Shown here one piece after another: positions 3,922 to 44,042 of a stretch of 64,000 nt of DNA. The notes below the pieces were generated by a model. The model made no database searches and was not told where the DNA came from. It was given only the letters and a program-made list of their open reading frames with translations. This stretch comes from Deltaproteobacteria bacterium (GTDB lineage: Bacteria > SAR324 > NAC60-12): positions 46,469 through 110,468 of the forward strand of contig JAYOTF010000005.1 in NCBI GenBank assembly GCA_038150265.1, read 5' to 3'. A program made the translations under genes and the position numbers. Numbering within the stretch: position 1 is the stretch's first letter; every line of letters begins with the position of its first letter.

Positions 3922-6285
3922 TCAGGAAGCGCTGTTGATGGCAGCCCAGACCTTTTGCGGGGTCAGGGGCATGGCCAGATCGCTCACTCCCAGCGGGCGC
4001 AGCGCATCCACCACCGCGTTCACAATGGCCGGAGTGGAGCCGATGCAGCCGGCTTCTCCAGCACCCTTGGCACCCAGCGGGTTGTGCGGGCACGGGGTGA
4101 CGTTGCCGTCCACCTCAAAGGAGATCAGGTCATCTGCACGAGGCATGGCGTAATCCAGGAAGGTGCCGGTGGTGAGCTGACCACTTTCGTCATACACTGC
4201 GCCTTCCAGCAACGCCTGACCAATGCCCTGGGCCAGACCGCCGTGAATTTGGCCTTCCACGATCATCGGGTTGACGATGTTTCCGACGTCATCGACCGCG
4301 ACGAAGCGCTTGATGGTCGTCTTGCCGGTTTCCGGATCGACTTCCACAACGGCAATGTAGGTGCCGAAGGGGTAGGTGAAGTTGGCCGGATCATAGAAGC
4401 TGTTGAACTCGATTCCGGGCTCCAGGCCTTCCGGGAAGTTGTGCGGGACGTAGGACGCGAGGGCGACTTCGCCGAAGCTGATCGACTTGTCGGTGCCCTT
4501 CACGGTCCAGCTGCCGTCGGCAAACTCGAGGTCCTGCTCCGACGCCTCCAGGAGGTGTGCCGCCACCTTGGCGCCTTTTTCCTTCACCTTCTCCAGGGCG
4601 CCCACGATGGCGCTTCCGCCGACCGCAAGGCTCCGGGATCCGTAGGTGCCCATGCCGAAGGGGACCTGCTCGGTGTCACCGTGGATGATCTCGACGTTGC
4701 TCATGTCAATGCCAAGGTGATCGGCCACCACCTGAGCAAAGGTGGTGTCGTGTCCCTGACCGTGGGAGTGGCTTCCGGTGTAGACCGACACCATGCCGGT
4801 CGGTTGCACACGGACGTTGGCGCTCTCAAAGAGTCCGGCCCGTGCCCCGAGGGAGCCCACCACCGCCGACGGCGCGATGCCGCAGGCTTCGATGTAGGAC
4901 GAGAAGCCAATGCCGATGTAGCGGCCTTGCTTGCGGGCTTCTTCCTGCTCCTTGCGCAGCTCGTCGTAGCCGATGATGTCCAGGGCCTTGCGCATGGCTG
5001 CTTCGTAGTTGCCGCTGTCGTACTGCAGGGCCACCTGGGTCTGGTACCCCGGTTGGTCCACCCCGTCAAAGGCCGGAATGAAGTTCTTCATGCGCAGCTC
5101 CGCCGGGTCCATGCCCATCTCGGCAGCAGCGGTGTCCATGAGCCGCTCCAGCAGGTAGGTGGCTTCCGGACGTCCGGCCCCCCGGTAGGCGTCCACAGCA
5201 GTGGTGTTGGTGAACACGGCGTTCACACTGACGTACACTGCCGGTGTGGTGTACTGTCCCTGCAGCAGGGTTCCATACAGGTAGGTGGGCACTGCCGTGG
5301 AGAAGGTGGACAGGTACGCGCCAATGTTGGCATCGGTGTGCACCTTGAGCGCCGTCAGCTTGCCGTCGGCATCAAAGCCCATCTGAGCCGTGGTGTGGTG
5401 GTCGCGTCCGTGTGCATCGGTGACAAACGCTTCGCTGCGCTCGGAGGTCCACTTGATCGGGCGTCCAATCTGCTTGGAGGCCCAGGTGACGAGGGCTTCT
5501 TCGGTGTAGTGATAGATCTTGCTGCCGAAGCCGCCACCGACGTCTTTGGCCACCACACGGACCTTGTGCTCGGGAATGCCAAGCACAAAGGCACACATCA
5601 GCAGGCGAATCACGTGCGGATTCTGCGAGGACGTGTAGAGCGTGTAATTGTCGCGAGACGCGTCGTAGTCGCCGATGTAGCTGCGTGGCTCAATCGGGTT
5701 CGGCACCAGACGCTGGTTGCGGATCTTCATGGAGGTGACGTGAGCGGCTTTGGCCAGCCCTTCGTCAGCCGCCGACGCATCTCCGAGTTCCCAGTCAAAG
5801 ACGAGGTTGTCCGGAAGCTCGTCGTGCACCTTTGCTGCACCCGGCTTGAGGGCATCCACCGATTCCACCACCACGGGCAGCTCCTCGTAGTCCACTTCAA
5901 TCAGGTCTGCCGCATCACGGGCCTGAGCCTTGGTTTCGGCAATGACCACGGCCACGCTGTCGCCCACGTGTCGGACCTTGTCGTGTACCAGCAGCGGGTG
6001 CTTGGGCTCCCGCATGGTCTCTCCGCTCTTGAAGTTGACCTGCCAGCCGCAGGGCACTCCGTTGACTTCCTGGACGTCTGCTCCCGTAAAGACGGCCACC
6101 ACTCCAGGGGCTGCCTTGGCGGCAGAGGTGTCAATGCTCTTGATGCGGGCGTGAGCCAGCTGGCTGCGCAGGATGTACGCGTGCGTCATGCGGTGCAGCA
6201 CAATGTCGTCGGTGTAGGTGCCCTTTCCGGTAATAAACCGTTGGTCCTCTACCCGCTTAATCGCTTGTCCAATGTATTTGCCCAT
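3922..6285 (-). CDS. Molybdopterin-binding large subunit of a form-II CoxL-like / xanthine dehydrogenase family enzyme
   Basis: Start ATG at 6285 with AAGGAGG RBS ([22 protein letters not shown]...). Active-site loop reads AYRGAGR (form II), not AYxCSFR of bona fide CO dehydrogenases. Confidence 0.9.
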
Positions 6286-6295
6286 GAATTCCTCC

Positions 6296-6757
6296 TTATG
6301 CGGACTGGTCAGCGGCCCACTGAACGGCCTTGACGATGTTGTCGTATCCCGTGCAGCGGCAGAAGTTTCCTTCGAGCGCATGCCGGATTTCTTGTTCGGA
6401 AGGCTTGGGGTTGCGTTGGAGCAACTGCCAGGAACTCATGATCATCCCCGGGGTGCAGTAGCCACACTGCAAGCCATGCTTCTCGCGGAAGCCCTCTTGA
6501 AGGGGGTGGAGCGTTCCGTTGGAAGCCAGCCCTTCAATCGTGGTGATTTCTGCGCCATCGCACTGCACAGCCAACAGGGTGCAGGACTTGACGGATTCGC
6601 CATTGACAACAATGGTGCAGGCCCCACAGCTGCTGGTATCACAGCCAACGTGGGTGCCGGTCAAACTGAGGTTTTCGCGCAAAAACTGCACGAGCAGGGT
6701 TCGTGGCTCGACGTCTTGGGAGACAGTCGCGCCGTTGACGGTCATCGTGACTTGCAT
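6296..6757 (-). CDS. (2Fe-2S)-binding small subunit (CoxS-like)
   Basis: MQVTMTVNG start with AAGGAGGA RBS. Cys motifs CDTSSCGAC and CGYCTPG..CRCTGY. Confidence 0.9.
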
Positions 6758-6864
6758 GGTGGGTCCTCCTTCTAATTTGGGAGAGAGGGTTAAGGCGCCT
6801 CGTGAGAGCAGAAAGCGCGAATGTGATAGCACGCGGTGCTACCGAAAGTCAATGATTCCGAGTG

Positions 6865-6893
6865 TTGACACCCGAAAAGCCCTTGGCTAAGGT
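6865..6893 (+). promoter_or_regulatory. Candidate sigma-70 promoter (TTGACA-17-TAAGGT) upstream of hypothetical gene 6926
   Basis: Exact TTGACA hexamer, 17-nt spacer, weak -10. Confidence 0.25.
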
Positions 6894-6925
6894 GAGTCCG
6901 CACCTTAGACCGCACAGGAGGGTTT

Positions 6926-22615: not shown

Positions 22616-23104
22616 GATCGAAAACTCCAATCTCAGAGGAAAATCAGGCGGACGCACCGCCGACTAAACGGGAAGAGCCTCCAAGATTTCAAGGTTTTCG
22701 TGGGGTTGTCAATGAAAAAGCGCCAAGGGCGTCAGGAAGGATTCATGAGGAGGGAGGCTCCGGAAGGGAGCCAAGAGGGCCTTCCGGAGGGGTGAGCGAT
22801 CAATGCTGCTCTTGGGTGCCGTGGGTCTGCTTCCACGCAAGGTAAGCCGCTTGTGCGTCATAGGCGTTGCGGTACTCGGTGCGGAAGTAGTTCTTCATCG
22901 CCAGTTCGTTGTTTCGGGTAGGGCTCAGCCAGTTCAGAATTTTCATTGTGTGATCTCAGATTTGAGTGTCCCGACATCCCTCGGGAAGGAAGAGCCAAAC
23001 CAATTGGCCCTTGTTACTAAATCAATTTAGCGCTGGTTTTATACAAACTCAAACCTGTTTTTGTAACAATAGTTGCTTTTATTTGGAATGAAACGAATGG
23101 GAGG

Positions 23105-23141
23105 CGCCTTCTCCGGAGGCAGCTCTTCAAGGCGCCAAACG
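23105..23141 (-). terminator. Hairpin GGCGCCTT-N18-AAGGCGCC immediately downstream of the SDR gene
   Basis: 8-bp perfect stem. Imperfect U-tract on minus strand (UUCGUUUCAUUCC). Confidence 0.35.
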
Positions 23142-23158
23142 GTGGAAAGTGGCTCCCT

Positions 23159-30442: not shown

Positions 30443-32703
30443 CCTGCTCCTCCTAAATTGACGGTTTCTGAGTGGCGTCGCCCCAATTGACGCTTGCCGA
30501 CAGCGGCCTGAATCAGTCCAATCACGAGGAGCATGACCACGATCAGGACAGACGAGTAGGCGATGGCGAGTCCGTAGTCGGCATTTTCCACACGACCCAG
30601 GATGTATGAGGTGGCCATGTCGTAGTCAGCGCTGACAAGAAAGATGACGGCACTGATGGCGGTCATGGCGCGGACAAAGCTGAAGACGAGCGCGGCAATC
30701 AAGGCTGGGCGCAGCAGCGGCAGCAGAATCTTGCGCAAGGTGGTTCCGGAAGGAGCCCCCAGGGTGAGCGAGGCTTCATCCAGGCTGGGGTCCAGCTGGG
30801 CCATGGACGCCACACCGGCCCGGATGCCTGTGGGCATGTTCCGAAAGATGAAGCACACCACGAGGATGACTCCGGTTCCAGTGATTTCGACCGGAGGCAC
30901 ATTGAAGGCGAGGATGTAACCGATGCCGATGATGGTGCCGGGAATGGCAAAGCTGAGCATGGTCACAAACTCAAAGACGTCTTTGCCGGCAAAGCGCTGG
31001 CGGGTCAGCAGCCATGCCGTCAGCAGCCCCAGCCCAGCAGTGAGGGGCGCCGAGATTCCGGAGATCTGGAGGGTGGTCCAGAACGAGTTCCAGGCCGCCC
31101 CCTGCCACATGAGCCCGAATTCGTCAGACCACCCCAGCGCAAAGGCATCCGCGTAGTGCTTGAGGGTGAAGTTGTGCTTGTAGCCCCACGATTCGACAAA
31201 GCCTCCAAAGAGGATCATTCCATACAGCGTGACACTCAGCACAACAAACGGAGCGGCGATGGAGCCAATGCCCCAGAGCACCCGCCGTGGCAACTGGACC
31301 GGAACCCCCGCGTCTCCCTTGCCGGTGACGCTGACGTAAGACTTCTGACCCAGCCAGCGGCGCTGAATCCAGAAGGTCGTCAGGGTGAAGCCAAGGAGCA
31401 CCAGCGCCAGCACGGCTGCCATGCCCTGATCGCTTTGAGCACCGGCAATGGCAAAAAAGATCTGGGTGGAAAGCACCTCGTAACTGCCTCCGAGCACCAG
31501 TGGGTTTCCAAAGTCGGCCAGGCTTTCAATGAACCCCAGCAAAAAGGCGTTGGCGATGCCGGGACGCATCAGGGGCAGGGACACGGTCCGGAAGGTCTCC
31601 CACTTGCTCGCCCGGAGCGTCTGGGCGGCTTCTTCCATTGAGGGGCTGACTCCTTCCACCACACCAATGAGCACCATGAAGGCGATGGGGGTGAAGGCCA
31701 TGGTTTGGGCAAACCAGACGCCTGGGAGGCCGTACACCCAACGGCTGGGAGGAATGTCGAAGGCCCAATGCAGAAAGCTGTTGAAGGCTCCGGCTCGTCC
31801 GAAGAGGAGAATGATGGCCAGGCCAATCACGAATGGTGGCGTGATGATGGGCAACAGGGTCACTGCCCGGATGGCCTTCTTGCCCTGAACCCCTGTCCGG
31901 GTGACCAGCAGCGCAAAGGCCAGGCCCAGCACCGTTGTGGTGGCTCCCACCAGGACCGCCAGCCAGAGCGAGTTCCAGGCGACGCCGCAGCTCAGCTCCG
32001 AGTACAGGCACCGCAGCTGCCAGATGCGTGGTGACGTGAGCTTTTCGGCAAACAGTGCCAGAGAAAGCTGGTCGTCTTCATTGAGAAGCGCACTGAAGAG
32101 GATGCGGGAGACGGGGTAGAAGATGAACAGGGCCACCAGCACGAGGTTGAGCCCAATGGTTCCGGTGACAAAACCGTCTCCCTGAACACCGCCTCTGAGC
32201 GACCACCCCTGGGTAAACAGGAACAGGAAGCACGCGGCAACCAGCAAGGCTCCGTAGCCCATGCCCTCTTGAGCCGGTCCGGGGCTGCCCAGCCAGGCCA
32301 GCAGCCACTCGCCGTTCCAGCCCCGTAACCCGATGGCGAAGCCCTGCAGGAAGAGCCAGAAGAGCCCGGCGCCTCCACAGAAACGGAGCATCCGGGAAAC
32401 CGAGGGATGCGTGCGCGGACGCCAGACCACGCTGAAGGGCAACGCGAGCAGCACCAGCAGCGGCACCAGCCACACCCGGTCAAACCAGAGGATCTGGAGC
32501 ACTCCGGGAGCGTACTCGTCATCCCAGGGCCAGCCATCGCTGACCCAGATGAAGCTCCAGAAGCCGTCATACGCGTGGTACCAGGGCAGGATCAGGATTC
32601 CGAACCAGCCCAGGCCCAGCCAGAAGAGAAGGGTGTGGCGGAAAAGAGAGGCGCCTCCGGCTCCACGAATGCGGAGGGAGGCGCTTGCACTGGAAGAGGT
32701 CAC
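30439..32703 (-). CDS. Fused two-domain ABC transporter permease (FbpB/iron(III)-type)
   Basis: 754 aa with two tandem binding-protein-dependent permease domains. 4-nt overlaps with the ATPase and SBP genes. Confidence 0.85.
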   Translation of the reverse strand: MTSSSASASLRIRGAGGASLFRHTLLFWLGLGWFGILILPWYHAYDGFWSFIWVSDGWPWDDEYAPGVLQILWFDRVWLVPLLVLLALPFSVVWRPRTHPSVSRMLRFCGGAGLFWLFLQGFAIGLRGWNGEWLLAWLGSPGPAQEGMGYGALLVAACFLFLFTQGWSLRGGVQGDGFVTGTIGLNLVLVALFIFYPVSRILFSALLNEDDQLSLALFAEKLTSPRIWQLRCLYSELSCGVAWNSLWLAVLVGATTTVLGLAFALLVTRTGVQGKKAIRAVTLLPIITPPFVIGLAIILLFGRAGAFNSFLHWAFDIPPSRWVYGLPGVWFAQTMAFTPIAFMVLIGVVEGVSPSMEEAAQTLRASKWETFRTVSLPLMRPGIANAFLLGFIESLADFGNPLVLGGSYEVLSTQIFFAIAGAQSDQGMAAVLALVLLGFTLTTFWIQRRWLGQKSYVSVTGKGDAGVPVQLPRRVLWGIGSIAAPFVVLSVTLYGMILFGGFVESWGYKHNFTLKHYADAFALGWSDEFGLMWQGAAWNSFWTTLQISGISAPLTAGLGLLTAWLLTRQRFAGKDVFEFVTMLSFAIPGTIIGIGYILAFNVPPVEITGTGVILVVCFIFRNMPTGIRAGVASMAQLDPSLDEASLTLGAPSGTTLRKILLPLLRPALIAALVFSFVRAMTAISAVIFLVSADYDMATSYILGRVENADYGLAIAYSSVLIVVMLLVIGLIQAAVGKRQLGRRHSETVNLGGAG

Positions 32704-33725
32704 CGGGGCAGTGTGGAGACCTCGTTATCCCACTTGGCCAACAGGCGGGAGCGCTCATCTTTGGAACCGTACTTGGCGTGGTCATAGTCAATGACCTTCA
32801 CCGAGTCCAAATCAGGTGCTTCGCTGGGGACGGTGGCGTTCTTGTTGGAGGGCACCTGGTAGGCTCCGACAGATGCTGCCAGGCTCTGGGCTTCAGCCGA
32901 GAGGGCAAAGTCGTAGAACTTCCTGGCGCTTTCCTGGTTCCGGGCCCCCTTGATGATGCTCATGGACCCAATCTCGTAGCCGGTTCCTTCACAAGGGGCA
33001 ACCGTTGCGATCGGCATGCCCTTGACCGCTTGGGTAACGGCGTCATGCATGAAAACGATTCCCACCGTGGTCTCGCCCTTTGCTGCCGCCTTGATCGGTG
33101 CAGAGCCGGACTTGGTGTACTGGCTCACGTTTCGGTGAAGCTGCTTCATGAAGTTGAAGCCCTCTTCTTCCCCAAAGAGCTGGACCATGGTGGCCAGAGT
33201 CGTGTAGGAGGTTCCGGAGGTGTTAGGGTTCGCAATCTGAACTTCTCCCTTCAGCGCTGGGCTGAGGAGGTCCTTCCAGCACTTCGGAGCCGGGACGTTC
33301 TTTTGGGCCAGCAATTCCTTGTTGTAGCCAAAGCCAAGACCGCCCATGTAGATGCCGACGGTTTTGCCCCCGGTTGCCTGATGCGGGGTGACCGCCCAGC
33401 CATTGAGCTGCGACATCATCGGAGAGGTGTAGGCCTCAGTGAGCCCCTCTTCGGCAGCTTGCAGGTGTGGGTCACCGGTTCCTCCCCACCACACGTCTCC
33501 CTTCGGATTCGAGCGCTCGGCCTTGATCTTCGCCAATGTTTCTCCAGAACTCATCCGCGTCATTGACACCTTGATCCCGGTTTGCTGCTCAAAGGTGTTC
33601 ACCATCAATTCACACCACTCAATCTGAGGGCTGCAGTAGAGGGTGAGGCGGTCAGCAGCCTGGGCCGATGCTCCCAGCAACAAGGCTCCCGCGAGGGCAC
33701 CGAAACTCTTGGTCCATTGCTTCAT
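32700..33725 (-). CDS. ABC transporter periplasmic substrate-binding protein (SBP family 1, Fe3+/FbpA-like)
   Basis: Start MKQWTKSFGALAGALLLGASAQA at 33725 with GGGAGA RBS. Continues ADRLTLYCSPQIEWCELMVNTFEQQTGIKV. Confidence 0.8.
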   Translation of the reverse strand: MKQWTKSFGALAGALLLGASAQAADRLTLYCSPQIEWCELMVNTFEQQTGIKVSMTRMSSGETLAKIKAERSNPKGDVWWGGTGDPHLQAAEEGLTEAYTSPMMSQLNGWAVTPHQATGGKTVGIYMGGLGFGYNKELLAQKNVPAPKCWKDLLSPALKGEVQIANPNTSGTSYTTLATMVQLFGEEEGFNFMKQLHRNVSQYTKSGSAPIKAAAKGETTVGIVFMHDAVTQAVKGMPIATVAPCEGTGYEIGSMSIIKGARNQESARKFYDFALSAEAQSLAASVGAYQVPSNKNATVPSEAPDLDSVKVIDYDHAKYGSKDERSRLLAKWDNEVSTLPR

Positions 33726-33815
33726 CACGTTTTTCTCCCTTTCTAAAAGTGAGGTTGGGGGGATCCCCGAAAAACCAGAAAGGAGAGAATTTGATTTCAA
33801 TTGAGTCACATTTCA

Positions 33816-33899: not shown

Positions 33900-34208
33900 T
33901 CAGTAGGCGAGAACCGACTCGCGCACCAGTCCGGTGCGCATCCGGAAGCGGCGTCCCTTGCGTCCTGGTGCTCCCTGGCCGTTGATGCGTTCCAGGATGC
34001 CTTTGGCTTCCAGGTCGCTGAGAACGCGGGAGACGTGTTCTCGTGCGCAGCCCAGCATTTCAGCGGTCTGGGACACGTGCAGCTGCACCTCACCGTTGTC
34101 TTGCAGGGACTTCATGCAGAAGAGCAGCACCTGCAGCTTCTTGGTGGCCCCCAACTCTTCGGAGAGCGCCAGAAGTTCGGACAGGTTGATTTCAATGTAC
34201 TGAGACAC
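33900..34208 (-). CDS. Small winged-helix/HTH transcriptional regulator
   Basis: HTH-like segment VSQTAEMLGCAREHVSRVLSDLEAKGILERI. 102 aa. Divergent from an SDR gene. Confidence 0.5.
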   Translation of the reverse strand: MSQYIEINLSELLALSEELGATKKLQVLLFCMKSLQDNGEVQLHVSQTAEMLGCAREHVSRVLSDLEAKGILERINGQGAPGRKGRRFRMRTGLVRESVLAY

Positions 34209-39814: not shown

Positions 39815-39849
39815 GAATTTTCTCCGAAACGGGTGTGGGTCAGCCTCGT

Positions 39850-39912
39850 TTCAAAGTATTCAAAAACTCAAACATTCCAGCCATTCGTAAATAGACGTAA
39901 GGTTGGCTGGAA
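39850..39912 (-). terminator. Terminator-like hairpin about 60 nt upstream of the PFOR start codon
   Basis: Perfect 9-bp stem TTCCAGCCA/TGGCTGGAA with 19-nt loop. On the minus strand followed by UGUUUGAGUUUUUGAAUACUUUGA. Confidence 0.4.
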
Positions 39913-40282
39913 TGAAACGGGGCGCGTTCAGCAGGTGGGCTGCTGGGAGAAGGACAGAGCGGGGGAGGCTGGAACGGAGGTGGACTTGCGGAATTTTTCC
40001 GAGTGCGAAGGTTCTCCTCCATGCCGGGACGGAATCCCAGAGGCCAGGGAACGTCCCGCCAACTGAAGCAGTGAGCGGCGACTGAAGTTCAACATGTGTG
40101 TGATACCTATTTCAAGTATGAGTAATCGAATCTGACGACACCTAATTATGACGGTCAAATGTTTAGATTGATTGAGCGCTCCGTTGCATCCCTGCAAAAA
40201 GGGGCAACCGCAGGAGCCAGAGGATGTTGGATGCTCTAGCAGAGGGCGTGCCAAATGAGGCGGAGGCGAGGGAACCGAAGGG

Positions 40283-41839
40283 TCAGGTCATCCCGGTCAT
40301 CATGCGGCCGATTTGCTCGACACTGGCGTCAGACCGGGGCAGGACGCCCACGATGCGTCCGTCAAAAAGAACGGCAATGCGATCGGAGAGGAGCATGAGC
40401 TCATCCAGATCTTCCGAGATCCACAACACCGCCAATCCTTCCTCCCGTCCGGCTCCGATGGATTCTCGAATGAAGCGGGTGGCATGAATATCCAGTCCGC
40501 GTGTGGGCTGACAGGCCAGCAGCACCTTGAGGGGGCGAGAGGTCTCTCTCGCGAGGATGACCTTCTGCATGTTTCCCCCAGAGAGCAGGCCCACCCGGGT
40601 CTTTTCAGAGGGAGCCCGGACATCGAACTCTCCCATTTTTTCATGACCATACTGCTGAATGGCTCTGTGCTGCAGCAGGGCATTTTGGAAAAATTGGGAA
40701 TTTTGAAAATCCCGGAGCAGGAAGTTTTCGGCAATGGACATTCCGGAAGCCACTCCAAATTTTTTCCGGTCTTCAGGAATGTAGCCCACGCCCCGCTGAA
40801 TGAGGTCGTTGACCTCTGGAGGCGCCAGCGTTTCGCCTTCAAACTGGAAGCGTCCGGAGGTGAGGGGGCGCAGGCCACAGAGGACCTCTGCCAACTCGCG
40901 CTGTCCATTTCCTGAAACTCCAGCCATGCCCAGCACCTCGCCGGCACGAAGCTCAAGGGAGACCCCCTTTAGCGCCGGGTGTCCCAAGTCGTTGACCGCA
41001 TGAACCGCCTCAAGGGAGACAACGATGCGGCCCTGCTCGGATTCGGTGGGCTGCTGGGCCACTTGCTCCGCCTGAGCCTCTTGAAGGACCACGGCTTCAT
41101 CGGCATCAAGCTGTGCCTTGGGGGCGTTGCCCATCATCCAGGAGGCCAGGGCCTCCGGCGTGGTGTCTTCGCGCTGCAGCGTGGTCATCAGGCGCCCATG
41201 GTGAATGACGGTGATCCGGTGCGAAAGCGCCATCACCTCCTTCATCTTGTGGGAAATGAAGAGCAGGGACTGCCCCTCCTGACTCATCCGCTGCATGATG
41301 CGGTAGAGCGCTTCAGACTCCTGAGGCGTCAAGACAGCGGTCGGCTCGTCCAGGATCAGGACCTGGGCTCCTCGGTACAGCACCTTGATGATTTCCACAC
41401 GCTGCTGCTCGCCCACGGAGAGGTCTCGGACGCGGCGAGTTGGGTCGACCTCAAGGTTGTAGCGCTCGCTGATTTCCCGGATCTCCTGGTTGACCTTCCG
41501 GAAGTCGAGGGCCTGGGCGCCGGGCTGGCCGAGAATGATGTTTTCAGCGACCGTGTGGTTCCGGACCAGCATGAAGTGCTGAAAGACCATGCCGATGCCG
41601 TGCTCAATGGCCTGCCGGGGATTCCGGAAGAGAACGGGCTTGCCATGGATGCGGATCTCTCCCTCGTCGGGAGCATAGAGCCCGGCAATGATGCTCATCA
41701 GCGTGGACTTGCCGGCACCGTTTTCTCCAAGGATCGTGTGGATTTCTCCGGCTCGCAGATCCAGGTCGATGTGATCGTTGGCAAGAACTCCGGGAAAGGC
41801 TTTGGTGATCCCCTGAAGTTCCAACACAGGAGGCGTCAT
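40283..41839 (-). CDS. ABC transporter ATP-binding protein with two nucleotide-binding domains (CUT2/ribose-nucleoside type)
   Basis: Two Walker A (GENGAGKST; GVSGNGQRE) and two signature/Walker B sets. No permease or SBP gene adjacent. Confidence 0.9.
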   Translation of the reverse strand: MTPPVLELQGITKAFPGVLANDHIDLDLRAGEIHTILGENGAGKSTLMSIIAGLYAPDEGEIRIHGKPVLFRNPRQAIEHGIGMVFQHFMLVRNHTVAENIILGQPGAQALDFRKVNQEIREISERYNLEVDPTRRVRDLSVGEQQRVEIIKVLYRGAQVLILDEPTAVLTPQESEALYRIMQRMSQEGQSLLFISHKMKEVMALSHRITVIHHGRLMTTLQREDTTPEALASWMMGNAPKAQLDADEAVVLQEAQAEQVAQQPTESEQGRIVVSLEAVHAVNDLGHPALKGVSLELRAGEVLGMAGVSGNGQRELAEVLCGLRPLTSGRFQFEGETLAPPEVNDLIQRGVGYIPEDRKKFGVASGMSIAENFLLRDFQNSQFFQNALLQHRAIQQYGHEKMGEFDVRAPSEKTRVGLLSGGNMQKVILARETSRPLKVLLACQPTRGLDIHATRFIRESIGAGREEGLAVLWISEDLDELMLLSDRIAVLFDGRIVGVLPRSDASVEQIGRMMTGMT

Positions 41840-41845
41840 GGATGC

Positions 41846-42202
41846 TTAGCTGCCGCGATAGGTCGTGAATCCAAAAGGACTGAGCAGGAGGGGGATGTGG
41901 TAGTGCTGATCGGGGTGTTCCAGGTGGAAGCGGATGTCGACTTCAGGATAGAAGCTGGACTGGCCCAGTTGCTCGAAGTAGGGGGCCACCGCAAAGCGCA
42001 TGCGGTAGATGCCCGGGGGCAATTCAGTCTCCGGAGGCAGCAGGTCAGTGACCCGGCCATCGGCGTTGGTGAGGCCTTCTGCAAGAACCTCCCAGTGCTT
42101 CTGATCGCTCTTGAGGCGACTGAGGGAGACGGACACTCCTGCAGCCGGACGGCCCAGGGCGGTATCCAGAATGTGCGTGGTGATCGGACTGATCGCGCTC
42201 AT
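41846..42202 (-). CDS. 5-hydroxyisourate hydrolase (transthyretin-like, HIUase)
   Basis: 118 aa ending in the diagnostic YRGS tetrapeptide. HILDTALGRPAAGV near N-terminus. GGAG RBS. Confidence 0.85.
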   Translation of the reverse strand: MSAISPITTHILDTALGRPAAGVSVSLSRLKSDQKHWEVLAEGLTNADGRVTDLLPPETELPPGIYRMRFAVAPYFEQLGQSSFYPEVDIRFHLEHPDQHYHIPLLLSPFGFTTYRGS

Positions 42203-42364: not shown

Positions 42365-43972
42365 TTAGCCCGCGGAGCCCTGGACGAGTCCGAGGACCGA
42401 GCGAGGCACCTGGTTGGCCTGAGCCACCATGGCCGTGCTGGCTTGCAGCATGATTTGGTCACTGGTGAGCTTCGACATCGTCTCGGCCACATCAGCATCC
42501 CGAATCATGGATTCCGCGTTGGTCAGGTTTTCCTCGGCAATCTTGAGGCTCTCCAGGTTGGCCTCCAGTGCGTTTTTCTGGAAACCGCCCAACTGGGCCC
42601 GGAATTGCGACACCTCGTCAATGACGCTTTCCACGATCCGACCGGCATCCAGGGCACCCTGGGTGGAGGTCACATCCACGTCGGCCAGGCTTTCAAACCC
42701 ACTCTTGTTGGGAATGCCCTGACCCAGTCGACGGGACCGAACGTCAATGAAGGAGAACGACGGGGTGAACTCGTTGTTCGGGTGCACCGGGAACTCCTTG
42801 GACTGCTGGGAGATGTGCAGGTACCCTTCGACGGGGCCGCCAACGACTTCCTCGTTGCTTTCTTCCACAAACTCCACACCCACCTGGGCTCCCTTCTCGT
42901 CAAAGACCGGAACCTCCTTGAGGCCGATTTCGCGAGTGTAGGCCACGGTGGCGCCACTGGCAGCGGTGCCTTCCAGAGCCGTCAGCAGCTGACCACGTCC
43001 CAGGGCGACTTCACCGTTGATGGTGCCCTCGACGTTTTTGCCGGGAGAGGCCAGTTCCGCGACGTTGGCTTCTTGCGAAAGCACCCCGGCGATGGAGCTG
43101 GTGACCGAGAAGGACGGCTCATCTCCAAACTGGTTGTGCCGGACCATCAACTCGCCGTTGGGGGTCTCAAACACGTAGGTGTCGGTTCCAGCCGCATCCA
43201 TCTCCTTTTGCAGAGCAAAGGTGATGATGCCCCGGATCTGAGAGCTCGCTTCCTGAGCCGTGAAGCGGTCGGGCGCAGCATCGTGATTCTTCAGAATCTG
43301 GGCAATGTCCTTGGCAATCTGCCCCTCACGCGTGTCCAGAGTGGCGTTCTTGCCGCCCTCGCTGATCACAATGAAGAGGCCGTTCCGGATGTTGTCCGTA
43401 TTGATGACGGTGGTGCCCCGGACCTGAGCCTGGGTGCCGACTTGGGTGATGTCGATGTTCCAGCCCGACTCCGGAGAGTTCGGAGTGGAGGACTCGGCCG
43501 ACACAAAGCGCAGGTGGTCACCGACGGTGACGCCGTTGGCGCCCATGCTGCCGTCCAGCAGACGCTTGCCGTTGAATTCCGTGTTGCGGGCAATCCGGTC
43601 CATGGTGCTCAACAGGTGCTCAATTTCCATTTGGTCAGCCTGGAGCATGTCCGGATCATTGACGGCCTCGTTGGCCGCGTGAACCGTCAGCTGCTTCAAC
43701 CGAACGAGGATGCCACTGACTTCATTCAGGGCTCCTTCTGCGGTTTGAACCAGCGAAACCGAAGTGGAGGCGTTATTGTAGGCTTGCTGCAAGCCCACAA
43801 TGTGCCCGCGCAATCGCTCGGAGGCAATGAGCGACGCAGGGCCGTCCGCTCCGCGGTTGATTTTTGTTCCCGAGCTCAGTTGCTCGATTCCACCCTTCAC
43901 TCGATCGAAATTGCTGCTGGCATGCCGCAACGTCGTGAGGGAGGTGGGGTTTTGTCGAATTGTCATCGCCAT
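42365..43972 (-). CDS. fliC: Flagellin
   Basis: Start MAMTIRQ with AAGGAG RBS. Conserved N-terminal (LSSGTKINRGADGPASLIASERLR) and C-terminal (QANQVPRSVLGLVQ) flagellin helices around a variable central region. Confidence 0.85.
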   Translation of the reverse strand: MAMTIRQNPTSLTTLRHASSNFDRVKGGIEQLSSGTKINRGADGPASLIASERLRGHIVGLQQAYNNASTSVSLVQTAEGALNEVSGILVRLKQLTVHAANEAVNDPDMLQADQMEIEHLLSTMDRIARNTEFNGKRLLDGSMGANGVTVGDHLRFVSAESSTPNSPESGWNIDITQVGTQAQVRGTTVINTDNIRNGLFIVISEGGKNATLDTREGQIAKDIAQILKNHDAAPDRFTAQEASSQIRGIITFALQKEMDAAGTDTYVFETPNGELMVRHNQFGDEPSFSVTSSIAGVLSQEANVAELASPGKNVEGTINGEVALGRGQLLTALEGTAASGATVAYTREIGLKEVPVFDEKGAQVGVEFVEESNEEVVGGPVEGYLHISQQSKEFPVHPNNEFTPSFSFIDVRSRRLGQGIPNKSGFESLADVDVTSTQGALDAGRIVESVIDEVSQFRAQLGGFQKNALEANLESLKIAEENLTNAESMIRDADVAETMSKLTSDQIMLQASTAMVAQANQVPRSVLGLVQGSAG

Positions 43973-44042
43973 GATGGACTCCTTGGTGGTACAAGTGAAA
44001 AACACTCTTCGGCAACGCTACCGTCGAGCGCTCTTGGGTCCA

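Follow-up and report, generated by a model that had tools for sequence, protein, structure and literature searches.

Pyruvate:ferredoxin oxidoreductase (PFOR) couples the oxidation of pyruvate to low-potential ferredoxin and is a key anaerobic/microaerobic switch in many uncultured soil bacteria, and to our knowledge almost nothing is known about its regulation outside model organisms. In the window analyzed here (64,000 nt of contig JAYOTF010000005.1, from a bacterium of the SAR324 lineage), the PFOR gene (39814-36242, minus strand) is preceded by a gap of 468 nt (40282-39815). It is bordered by the PFOR ATG on one side and by the stop codon of a two-domain ABC ATPase gene (40283-41839, minus) on the other, forming the 3′ flank of the latter and the 5′ flank of the former; the same limits were given by the first-pass annotation of this stretch. 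The question raised by the locus is what this gap does. Judged by comparison with related genomes, it is a conserved, single-copy control region, outside the described RNA families, of the operon that PFOR forms with a dihydroorotate-dehydrogenase-like gene (36245-35235, minus, overlapping the PFOR stop).

The reading that we prefer, with a probability of roughly 45%, divides the gap into two units. The proximal module (~39940-39815) would be ancestral to a small clade and would hold the PFOR promoter/operator, composed of TRCGTNNATYTAC-G-R-ATGGC, a spacer of 18 nt, and a −10-like hexamer (TTGAAT or TAGAAT). It would also contain a leader hairpin that pairs with the PFOR Shine-Dalgarno (SD) sequence and may limit or condition translation. 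The distal module (40282 to ~39940) is found in the window species and one sister species only. There, a candidate sigma-54-type promoter located 30 nt after the ABC stop would launch a folded RNA of ~365 nt, which contains an open reading frame (ORF) of 55 codons and would end at hairpin 1. In the same two species the 11-bp stem of hairpin 1 and the U tract behind it wrap the putative promoter/operator sequence; they would serve as an intrinsic terminator on upstream RNA (either the sigma-54 transcript or read-through from the ABC gene) and would insulate PFOR from it. If true, this would show concretely how a PFOR operon of an uncultured lineage may be regulated, by sigma-54 input, an insulating terminator, an operator motif, and a masked ribosome site. 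The wider significance is limited, since only two species-level lineages carry the element and its parts are all of known kinds.

Conservation of the gap in related lineages

A large protein search with PFOR returned three clusters (100%, 82%, and 80% identity), and the contigs of these clusters and their members represent four lineages, all having upstream regions of 285–481 nt. Lineage A is the window itself. Lineage B, the sister species (L084/85/86), has a PFOR protein that is 94% identical and was first reached via a 55-aa homologue of the gap ORF; its ABC ATPase gene is syntenic and, as in the window, co-directional with PFOR. As for lineage C (L081/82/87/88/89, PFOR 82% identical), the upstream gene is divergent, while in lineage D (L083/L090, 80%) a co-directional gene for a CO-dehydrogenase-type flavoprotein subunit precedes PFOR. 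The cluster members L085–L090 are near-identical to lineages already in hand and add no independent comparison. Because sequences within a lineage are nearly identical, the number of independent sequences is two over the full gap and four over the proximal part. Sources of the related contigs are ENA PRJEB17505 (ERZ930064, ERZ930071), ERZ23491218, and assembly GCA_965662235.1.

Other searches contributed little. According to a genome-collection scan with full-length PFOR, the only relatives among the matches listed are 57–64% identical, and their upstream DNA is unalignable. The PFOR N-terminus was uninformative as a query: it is ~80% identical across phyla, and even a 100% identical protein was unlisted. 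Metagenome scans with a DNA pattern and with an ORF alignment gave zero matches in a collection that lacks some JGI contigs. They are weak evidence, because JGI contig L089 (3300063996) has an exact match to the pattern, yet the collection does not hold it.

Third codon positions provide a neutral yardstick. Between A and B they differ at 100 of 211 sites in PFOR (47%) and at 55 of 131 in the ABC gene, and unconstrained DNA is therefore expected to be ~50–55% identical; the variable parts of the gap show values of 33–56%. Perfect runs of 24–41 nt are common in the coding sequence of these two lineages (27 runs of at least 24 nt per ~9.5 kb), so that identity runs within genes mean little, and those in the ABC gene, considered as hidden regulatory sites, were dropped for this reason. 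In non-coding DNA, each position of an identity run must be held.

Conservation with the sister species is strong and comes in discrete blocks. On the minus strand, the gap opens with 27 nt of 33% identity (40282-40256), followed by a conserved block (40255-40224, 29/32 identical), a stretch of 61% with indels (40223-40197), a block of 80% (40196-40141), a freely drifting part of 53% (40140-40096), and a near-invariant block (40095-40045, 49/51). The 45 nt after 40045 are 56% identical; positions 39999-39985 (GAAAAATTCCGCAAG) keep 13 of 15 bases, the next 27 nt drop to 52%, and 39957-39928 is again conserved (26/30). After a short variable stretch (39927-39915, 62%), the block 39914-39856 retains 56 of 59 bases, including a 46-nt perfect run, and the region of hairpin 2 is 77% identical. 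Based on this comparison, about half of the gap is under constraint, forming a mosaic of near-invariant and drifting blocks.

This mosaic bears directly on the idea that the gap has an ordinary promoter only and is otherwise a decaying remnant of lost genes (e.g., permeases of the orphan ABC ATPase) with chance hairpins. The ABC ATPase indeed has no adjoining permease or binding-protein gene, and the gap contains several overlapping ORFs of 60–108 codons, as is often the case in GC-rich non-coding DNA. Moreover, the 9–11-bp inverted repeat of hairpin 1 is not beyond chance on the scale of the window: repeats of 9 bp with a spacer of 3–30 nt number 14 vs 12.5 in shuffles, and one of 11 bp is expected 0.72 times. 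The weight of the finding thus comes from conservation rather than from the repeat itself. However, about half of the gap is 80–96% identical vs ~50% at neutral sites, and since this half is constrained, the idea of a decaying remnant is excluded for it. A 108-aa frame compared with 1.84 billion proteins recovered the sister ORF and repeat-driven eukaryotic noise, with no gene remnant. This explanation, which we rate as very improbable, is already largely refuted by the conservation pattern.

Regarding size and composition, the first-pass annotation described the gap as the largest in the window and placed it in a 63% GC background. A crude gene call gives two longer gaps (6382-6925 and 22658-23158), and the measured GC content of the window is 60.8%. 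The reported AT-rich island (40081-40165) is present, with 35.3% GC; its upstream part falls within the conserved block 40196-40141, while the neutral stretch 40140-40096 has nonetheless stayed AT-rich. Such an island is not unusual, since 11 regions of the window (this one and ten others) reach 40% GC or less over 85 nt. The first-pass annotation also considered a nucleoid-protein binding site; half of the island, the candidate for such a site, drifts freely in sequence. The absence of tRNA genes and known RNA families from the gap is confirmed by ARAGORN, which found no tRNA or tmRNA (transfer-messenger RNA) genes, and by Rfam. At the gathering threshold, Rfam gave nothing in the region for the window and three related loci; the permissive search (E up to 10) over the region returned only a spurious long non-coding RNA match. 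A blastn-short comparison of the gap with the rest of the window produced chance matches of 12–14 nt only, i.e., the gap is single-copy within the window and is not a repeat of the REP (repetitive extragenic palindromic) or MITE (miniature inverted-repeat transposable element) type.

Proximal module: promoter-like motifs and two hairpins

Lineages C and D share with the window only the proximal ~125 nt, which hold the motif TRCGTNNATYTAC. Common to A, B, and C are TGCTGA, CCAGC, TACGT-N3-AT-N-TACG-R-ATGGC, a spacer of exactly 18 nt, and GAATACT; lineage D has TGCTGAAC and TGCGTAGATTTAC in common with the window. The core TACGTCTATTTAC (39899-39887, minus) is located in the loop of hairpin 1; a direct repeat TTACG-N5-TTACG, with copies one helical turn apart, occupies 39886-39900 (minus). 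Written as T[AG]CGTNNAT[CT]TAC, the 13-nt core is found upstream of PFOR in all 4 lineages and occurs elsewhere in 1.2 Mb of fetched DNA twice, which is about the chance number. The −10-like hexamer TTGAAT (39863-39858, minus) lies at the conserved GAATACT (39861-39855); the window, the sister species, and lineage C have identical spacing in ATGGC-N18-GAATACT, and the hexamer of lineage C is TAGAAT.

Because the upstream gene of lineage C is divergent, its PFOR promoter must be located in its own intergenic region. The proximal module is the sole part of that region shared with the window and is for this reason read as the PFOR promoter/operator. The proximal motif may instead have a role in the leader RNA.

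Hairpin 1 (39873-39914, minus) consists of an 11-bp perfect stem, CATTCCAGCCA/TGGCTGGAATG, a 5-bp inner helix, and the loop CUAUUU, with a folding energy of −17.3 kcal/mol and z = −6.4. Its arms occupy 39904-39914 and 39873-39883, with 20 nt between them. The first-pass annotation had noticed 9 of these pairs and a U-rich tract near PFOR; the stem proves to be longer, it ends 59 nt before the ATG, and it is directly followed by UUUGAGUUUUU (39872-39862, minus), having 8 U in 11 nt. Compared with the sister species, three bases differ, one of which is an A to G change in the stem that keeps a G-U pair, and the U tract is invariant. In lineage C, 7 of the 11 pairs form in register and the U tract is absent; neither the long stem nor the U tract is found in C or D.

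The distribution of the stem among the lineages is consistent with a terminator shielding PFOR from transcription that arrives from upstream. Both stem and U tract occur in A and B, which both have a co-directional unit ending just upstream, while the divergent lineage C keeps only the motif and GAATACT. Lineage D, whose upstream gene is co-directional, has by inspection a different hairpin, GCCCUCAC-GAAA-GUGGGGC, directly after that gene. As in intrinsic terminators, a stable stem-loop precedes a U-rich tract on the transcribed strand, 3′ of a co-directional unit. In contrast to them, hairpin 1 is long (42 nt), interrupted, and modest in G+C (6 G-C among the 11 outer pairs), and its U tract is broken by GAG. 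Its sequence is also far more conserved than usual and overlaps promoter-like motifs.

Another possibility is that the 59-nt block acts at the DNA level only, as an operator/promoter. The inverted repeat would then represent two protein half-sites separated by three helical turns, and the RNA hairpin would have no function of its own. The arms show no compensatory change where ~10 changes are expected at the neutral rate, and the constraint on hairpin 1 thus looks sequence-specific and not merely structural. Sequence conservation extends over loop, arms, and tail, beyond what a terminator needs, and CCAGC, TACGT, TAC-G-R-ATGGC, and GAATACT persist in lineage C as sequences, not as pairs. However, the sole arm change (A to G) keeps the RNA pair and breaks the DNA palindrome, and lineage C retains the core motif without the inverted repeat. 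A U tract placed directly after the stem is hard to explain by protein binding to DNA, and a 20-bp spacer is unusual for a dimeric protein site, which also counts against such an operator. Overall, a role at the DNA level only seems improbable.

Hairpin 2 (39822-39856, minus) is formed by CUUUGAAACG pairing with CGUUUCGGAG and includes the PFOR SD sequence GGAG (39825-39822). Its folding energy is −13.3 kcal/mol (z = −4.0) in the window and −16.5 kcal/mol (z = −5.4) in the sister species, where CUCCGAAUGAG pairs with CUCAUUUCGGAG. Between these two independent sequences, one C-G pair is replaced by U-A, and the stem is preserved through several one-sided changes, among them U-G to C-G. Among the predicted helices, hairpin 2 has the clearest comparative support, on very few sequences. 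The predicted probability that the SD is paired equals 1.0 in both species, a value reached by 3% and 4.5% of upstream shuffles, respectively.

The effect of this pairing on translation would depend on where the PFOR transcript begins. With a start ~7 nt after TTGAAT, the anti-SD sequence CUUUG would fall outside the window mRNA, and hairpin 2 would then silence read-through transcripts only. SD-sequestering hairpins of 5′ untranslated regions, such as the fourU and ROSE-type thermometers, are comparable in that the SD GGAG is paired with an upstream CUUUG (CUCCG) that is kept through change. They differ from hairpin 2 in that its anti-SD may not belong to the window PFOR mRNA, depending on the true start, and it resembles none of the Rfam thermometer families in sequence or by model. 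Nor does the sister stem, which is fully Watson-Crick and more stable, suggest a thermometer.

Distal module: sigma-54-type element, predicted folded RNA, and ORF

The conserved block at 40255-40224 (minus), which reads TTTGGCACGCCCTCTGCTAGAGCATCC, contains the sigma-54-type promoter match TGGCACGCCCTCTGCT (TGGCACG-N4-CTGCT, 40253-40238, minus), with GG and GC 10 nt apart. It agrees with TGGCACG-N4-TTGCW at 11 of 12 positions and is the sole match of at least 11 on both strands of the 64 kb, compared with 0.44 in shuffles. The sister version is TGGCACACCCTCTGCT, in a block for which neutral identity would be ~53%, and the element is absent from lineages C and D. Relative to the predicted start (~40227-40228), the conserved block covers ~−27 to +4 of the predicted promoter, and the match lies 439 nt before the PFOR ATG. 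A sigma-54 site in the proximal ATGGC region was also considered and rejected owing to wrong spacing in every lineage.

Similar elements are found in front of PFOR elsewhere. Among 80 PFOR loci from many phyla (L001–L080), 8 sense-strand sigma-54-like matches (at least 10/12, GG-N10-GC) are located within 600 nt upstream, while shuffles give 1.3 ± 1.2 (0 of 200 reached 8), the antisense strand 2, and coding sequence 0–1. Examples are TGGCACGTTCGTTGCG at −64 (L067) and TGGCATGCAATTCGCA at −97 (L017); some matches fall within the neighboring upstream ORF, e.g., at −390 in L008 and −405 in L011. This enrichment of about six times suggests that sigma-54 control of PFOR is widespread beyond the Klebsiella nif cluster, and it may be of more general use.

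According to the listing in PMC10083551, the nifJ promoter of Klebsiella pneumoniae is NifA/sigma-54-dependent (Charlton et al. 1993). The window element shares with it the −24 GG/−12 GC architecture, TGGCACG-N4-xTGCW (11/12), and a position ahead of a nifJ-type PFOR gene. It differs in its distance of 439 nt from the ATG and in the terminator-like hairpin between site and gene. Sigma-54 activators are also encoded in verrucomicrobial genomes (PMC5623727), and Verrucomicrobia is the phylum of the nearest named PFOR homologues among the matches listed.

The last 27 nt of the ABC gene (40283-40309, minus) are identical in the sister species and carry a direct repeat, GATGACC-GG-GATGACC. Being located 30–57 nt upstream of the sigma-54-like element, this repeat could be an activator site; it is given little weight, because such identity runs are common in the coding sequence of A and B.

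The predicted RNA has a significant fold on the sense strand. Compared with column-shuffled alignments, the consensus fold has z = −5.0 for the proximal and −3.0 for the distal part, with −1.7 for the distal antisense strand. A helix AUGGAGG/CCUCCGU (40022-40016/39980-39974, minus), which carries the conserved GAAAAAUUCCG in its loop, reads CCGACGG/CCGUUGG in the sister species, i.e., it contains four double-sided pair changes. When shuffles hold the variable columns in place, 1.3% of them reach four such changes in one helix (P about 0.013). The sister sequence, folded by itself, does not adopt this helix.

As for the hairpin UGAC-C-GUC...GGU-GUC-GUCA (40133-40157, minus), which overlaps the conserved block 40196-40141, the window wobble pairs G-U and U-G correspond to Watson-Crick G-C and C-G in the sister species, which fits an RNA helix on the minus-strand transcript. 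Further upstream, a small hairpin UUGCA-GGGA-UGCAA (40184-40197, minus), with a 5-bp stem and a GNRA-type loop, has a stem that is invariant between A and B and a loop that changes from GGGA in the window to GAAA in the sister species. The nested GC hairpins reported earlier, GUUGC-CCCU...AGGG-AU-GCAAC (40175-40210, minus), are present in the window. In the sister species, however, the outer stems are not kept and only a differently registered 5-pair stem forms. This structure overlaps the conserved 40184-40197 stem and is mutually exclusive with it; it is probably non-functional as drawn, because the sister species has uncompensated changes in both arms. Taken as a group, the RNA-type substitutions in the distal module are suggestive, not proof.

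The 55-codon ORF (MLNFSRRSLLQLAG...QQPTC, 40095-39928, minus) is of doubtful coding status. The statement of the first-pass annotation that no credible ORF is present is nevertheless too strong, since the frame is intact and has the same length in the sister species. Its homologue there (P0242) has 55 aa, 65% identity, and E = 1e-10. According to protein searches over 1.84 billion representatives and 5.8 billion clusters, it is the only real relative; three further hits (P0241, P0243, and P0244) were rejected as repeat-driven eukaryotic noise. Lineages C and D do not have the ORF.

The ORF could also be a genuine small-protein gene, transcribed from a promoter within the AT-rich island and terminated by hairpin 1. 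Start and stop are kept between A and B with zero indels over 168 nt, whereas the flanking non-coding stretches carry indels. Changed codons comprise 11 synonymous and 19 non-synonymous ones in frame, vs 4 and 1 synonymous in the other two frames, and when the 41 differences are placed randomly, an open frame with at least 11 synonymous codons arises in 1.6% of trials.

Other properties point away from coding. In codons 1–17, third positions are changed in 2 of 17 cases vs 47% in PFOR; as synonymous sites are more conserved than in PFOR, the constraint there appears to be at the nucleotide level. These codons contain a hairpin (40049-40090, minus, −17.1 kcal/mol, z = −2.65) that begins 5 nt after the ATG. 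Where the ORF varies, it drifts neutrally (52–56% identity), and a hand tally shows no codon-position bias. GC content by codon position is 0.54/0.61/0.68 vs 0.66/0.42/0.74 in real genes. Only AGG, 10 nt upstream of the ATG, precedes the start, and gene calling picked up the ORF in 1 of 3 sister contigs. Its last 9 codons align to a sequence of lineage C that is not an ORF: the frame there meets a stop 20 codons upstream and contains no ATG. Pfam and NCBIfam, including the models of twin-arginine translocation (Tat) signals, give no match even at E = 1–10. Given these values, we regard an independent small-protein gene as unlikely, and translation of the ORF into a functional peptide as doubtful to the same degree.

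Two readings of the ORF product were dropped. For a Tat signal peptide or small secreted protein, SRRSLLQ can be recognized by eye, but the sequence gives no match to the Tat models, and the supposed hydrophobic core that follows (LAGRSLASGIPSRH in the window, LAGRSLTSEKLSRT in the sister species) has Arg, Glu, and Lys. A pseudogene or Tat-signal remnant was rejected as well, as the sole homologue is the sister ORF and the Tat models are unmatched.

The position of the ORF is also of interest for a long-leader attenuator, in which PFOR would be transcribed from the sigma-54 promoter through a leader of ~410 nt; hairpin 1 would then be a regulated terminator, and hairpin 2 would gate translation. 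Sensing would fall to a protein, small RNA, or ligand, or else to translation of the ORF, whose stop codon (39930-39928) adjoins hairpin 1, 13 nt before it. Such a mechanism is consistent with the enrichment of sigma-54-like sites upstream of PFOR in other phyla, the lack of a consensus sigma-70 promoter in the gap, the upstream lengths in all four lineages, and the significant sense-strand fold. Leader-peptide and riboswitch attenuators likewise combine a long leader, an ORF ending shortly before a terminator-like hairpin, and a metabolic operon.

They differ from the gap in having what it does not show: a conserved antiterminator or anti-antiterminator, an aptamer match, and a run of regulatory codons in the ORF, which moreover has 55 codons here. 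Candidate antiterminators were rejected: the third TTCCAGCC copy (39974-39967) and the pairing GCCCCGTTTCA/TGAAACGAGGC are both lost in the sister species, and the direct repeat GCTGA..CCCGTTTC is not conserved. Since the alternative pairings of the window are lost in B, a classical attenuator is not supported. No recognizable sensor (aptamer, T-box, or protein-binding RNA motif) was found by Rfam at either the permissive or the gathering threshold. In addition, lineages C and D lack the sigma-54 site, the ORF, and the terminator, yet carry the proximal motif. Hence, of the earlier suggestion of an attenuator or riboregulator of PFOR, or a small RNA, the conserved blocks, sense-strand fold, SD hairpin, and sigma-54-like match speak for some such role, while the conserved antiterminator and the Rfam family are missing.

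A long-leader attenuator, the main rival of the two-unit reading, appears on the whole unlikely. Its boldest form is improbable, i.e., a new cis-regulatory RNA in which a sigma-54-launched leader of ~400 nt gates PFOR twice, by a conditional terminator and by the SD-masking hairpin, according to a metabolic or redox cue sensed via a ligand or protein; such an RNA may be dual-function, with a translated 55-codon ORF.

The preferred arrangement of two units, with a sigma-54-launched RNA ending at hairpin 1 and a separate PFOR promoter, has several results standing against it. Sigma-70 and terminator consensus scans make no call inside the gap: no consensus −35 is found ahead of TTGAAT, and hairpin 1 is missed by the terminator scan, which requires a loop of 3–8 nt. 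The same two classes, sigma-70 promoters and canonical terminators, are not enriched across 40 kb of the window. The stem arms of hairpin 1 show no compensatory change in 22 bases. In lineages C and D, SD pairing has a probability of 0.78–0.79, which does not exceed that of shuffles. No rpoN or enhancer-binding protein gene is present among the 37 ORFs scanned in the 64 kb. Finally, with two independent sequences for the distal and four for the proximal part, covariation is thin, and the total of compensatory pairs is not above shuffles (P = 0.12).

Neighboring genes and other features of the window

Upstream of the ABC ATPase gene, the minus strand carries a gene for HIU hydrolase (41846-42202) and one for flagellin (42365-44005). 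The top NCBIfam match of the ABC ATPase is 'putative B6 ABC transporter ATP-binding protein', with 517 bits vs a cut-off of 670, and the gene stands without adjoining permease or binding-protein genes in the sister species (L086) as well.

Downstream, PFOR is always followed by the gene for a 'dihydroorotate dehydrogenase-like protein' (NF005741/PRK07565, 449 bits) in the window, L081, L083, and L085–L090. The junction is either an overlap or a gap of 3–5 nt, and the two form a conserved gene pair. In lineage D (L083, L090), PFOR is located directly after a xanthine/CO-dehydrogenase-type set (Fer2_2, MoCoBD, FAD_binding_5, XdhC, and CoxD/E-like). The window has HIU hydrolase near PFOR and the large subunit of a molybdopterin hydroxylase at 3922-6381. 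PFOR is thus loosely associated with purine-catabolism-type genes in the clade of lineages A–D.

Two features were noticed far from the gap. A thiamine pyrophosphate (TPP) riboswitch aptamer (RF00059) is located at 653-752 on the minus strand, scoring 69.3 bits (gathering score, 54.3). A histidine kinase gene (770-1918) lies just upstream of it, and the gene that it presumably precedes extends beyond the window. On the minus strand, two copies of the near-palindrome TTGAAATCAA are present (33791-33800 and 34186-34195), compared with an expected number of 0.09. These copies flank a helix-turn-helix (HTH) ORF of ~100 aa (33900-34208, minus), called HTH_Crp_2 in the sister species, and are located just upstream of this ORF and of an ABC-transporter solute-binding gene (32700-33809). 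From this placement, the pair looks like an operator pair for the HTH regulator.

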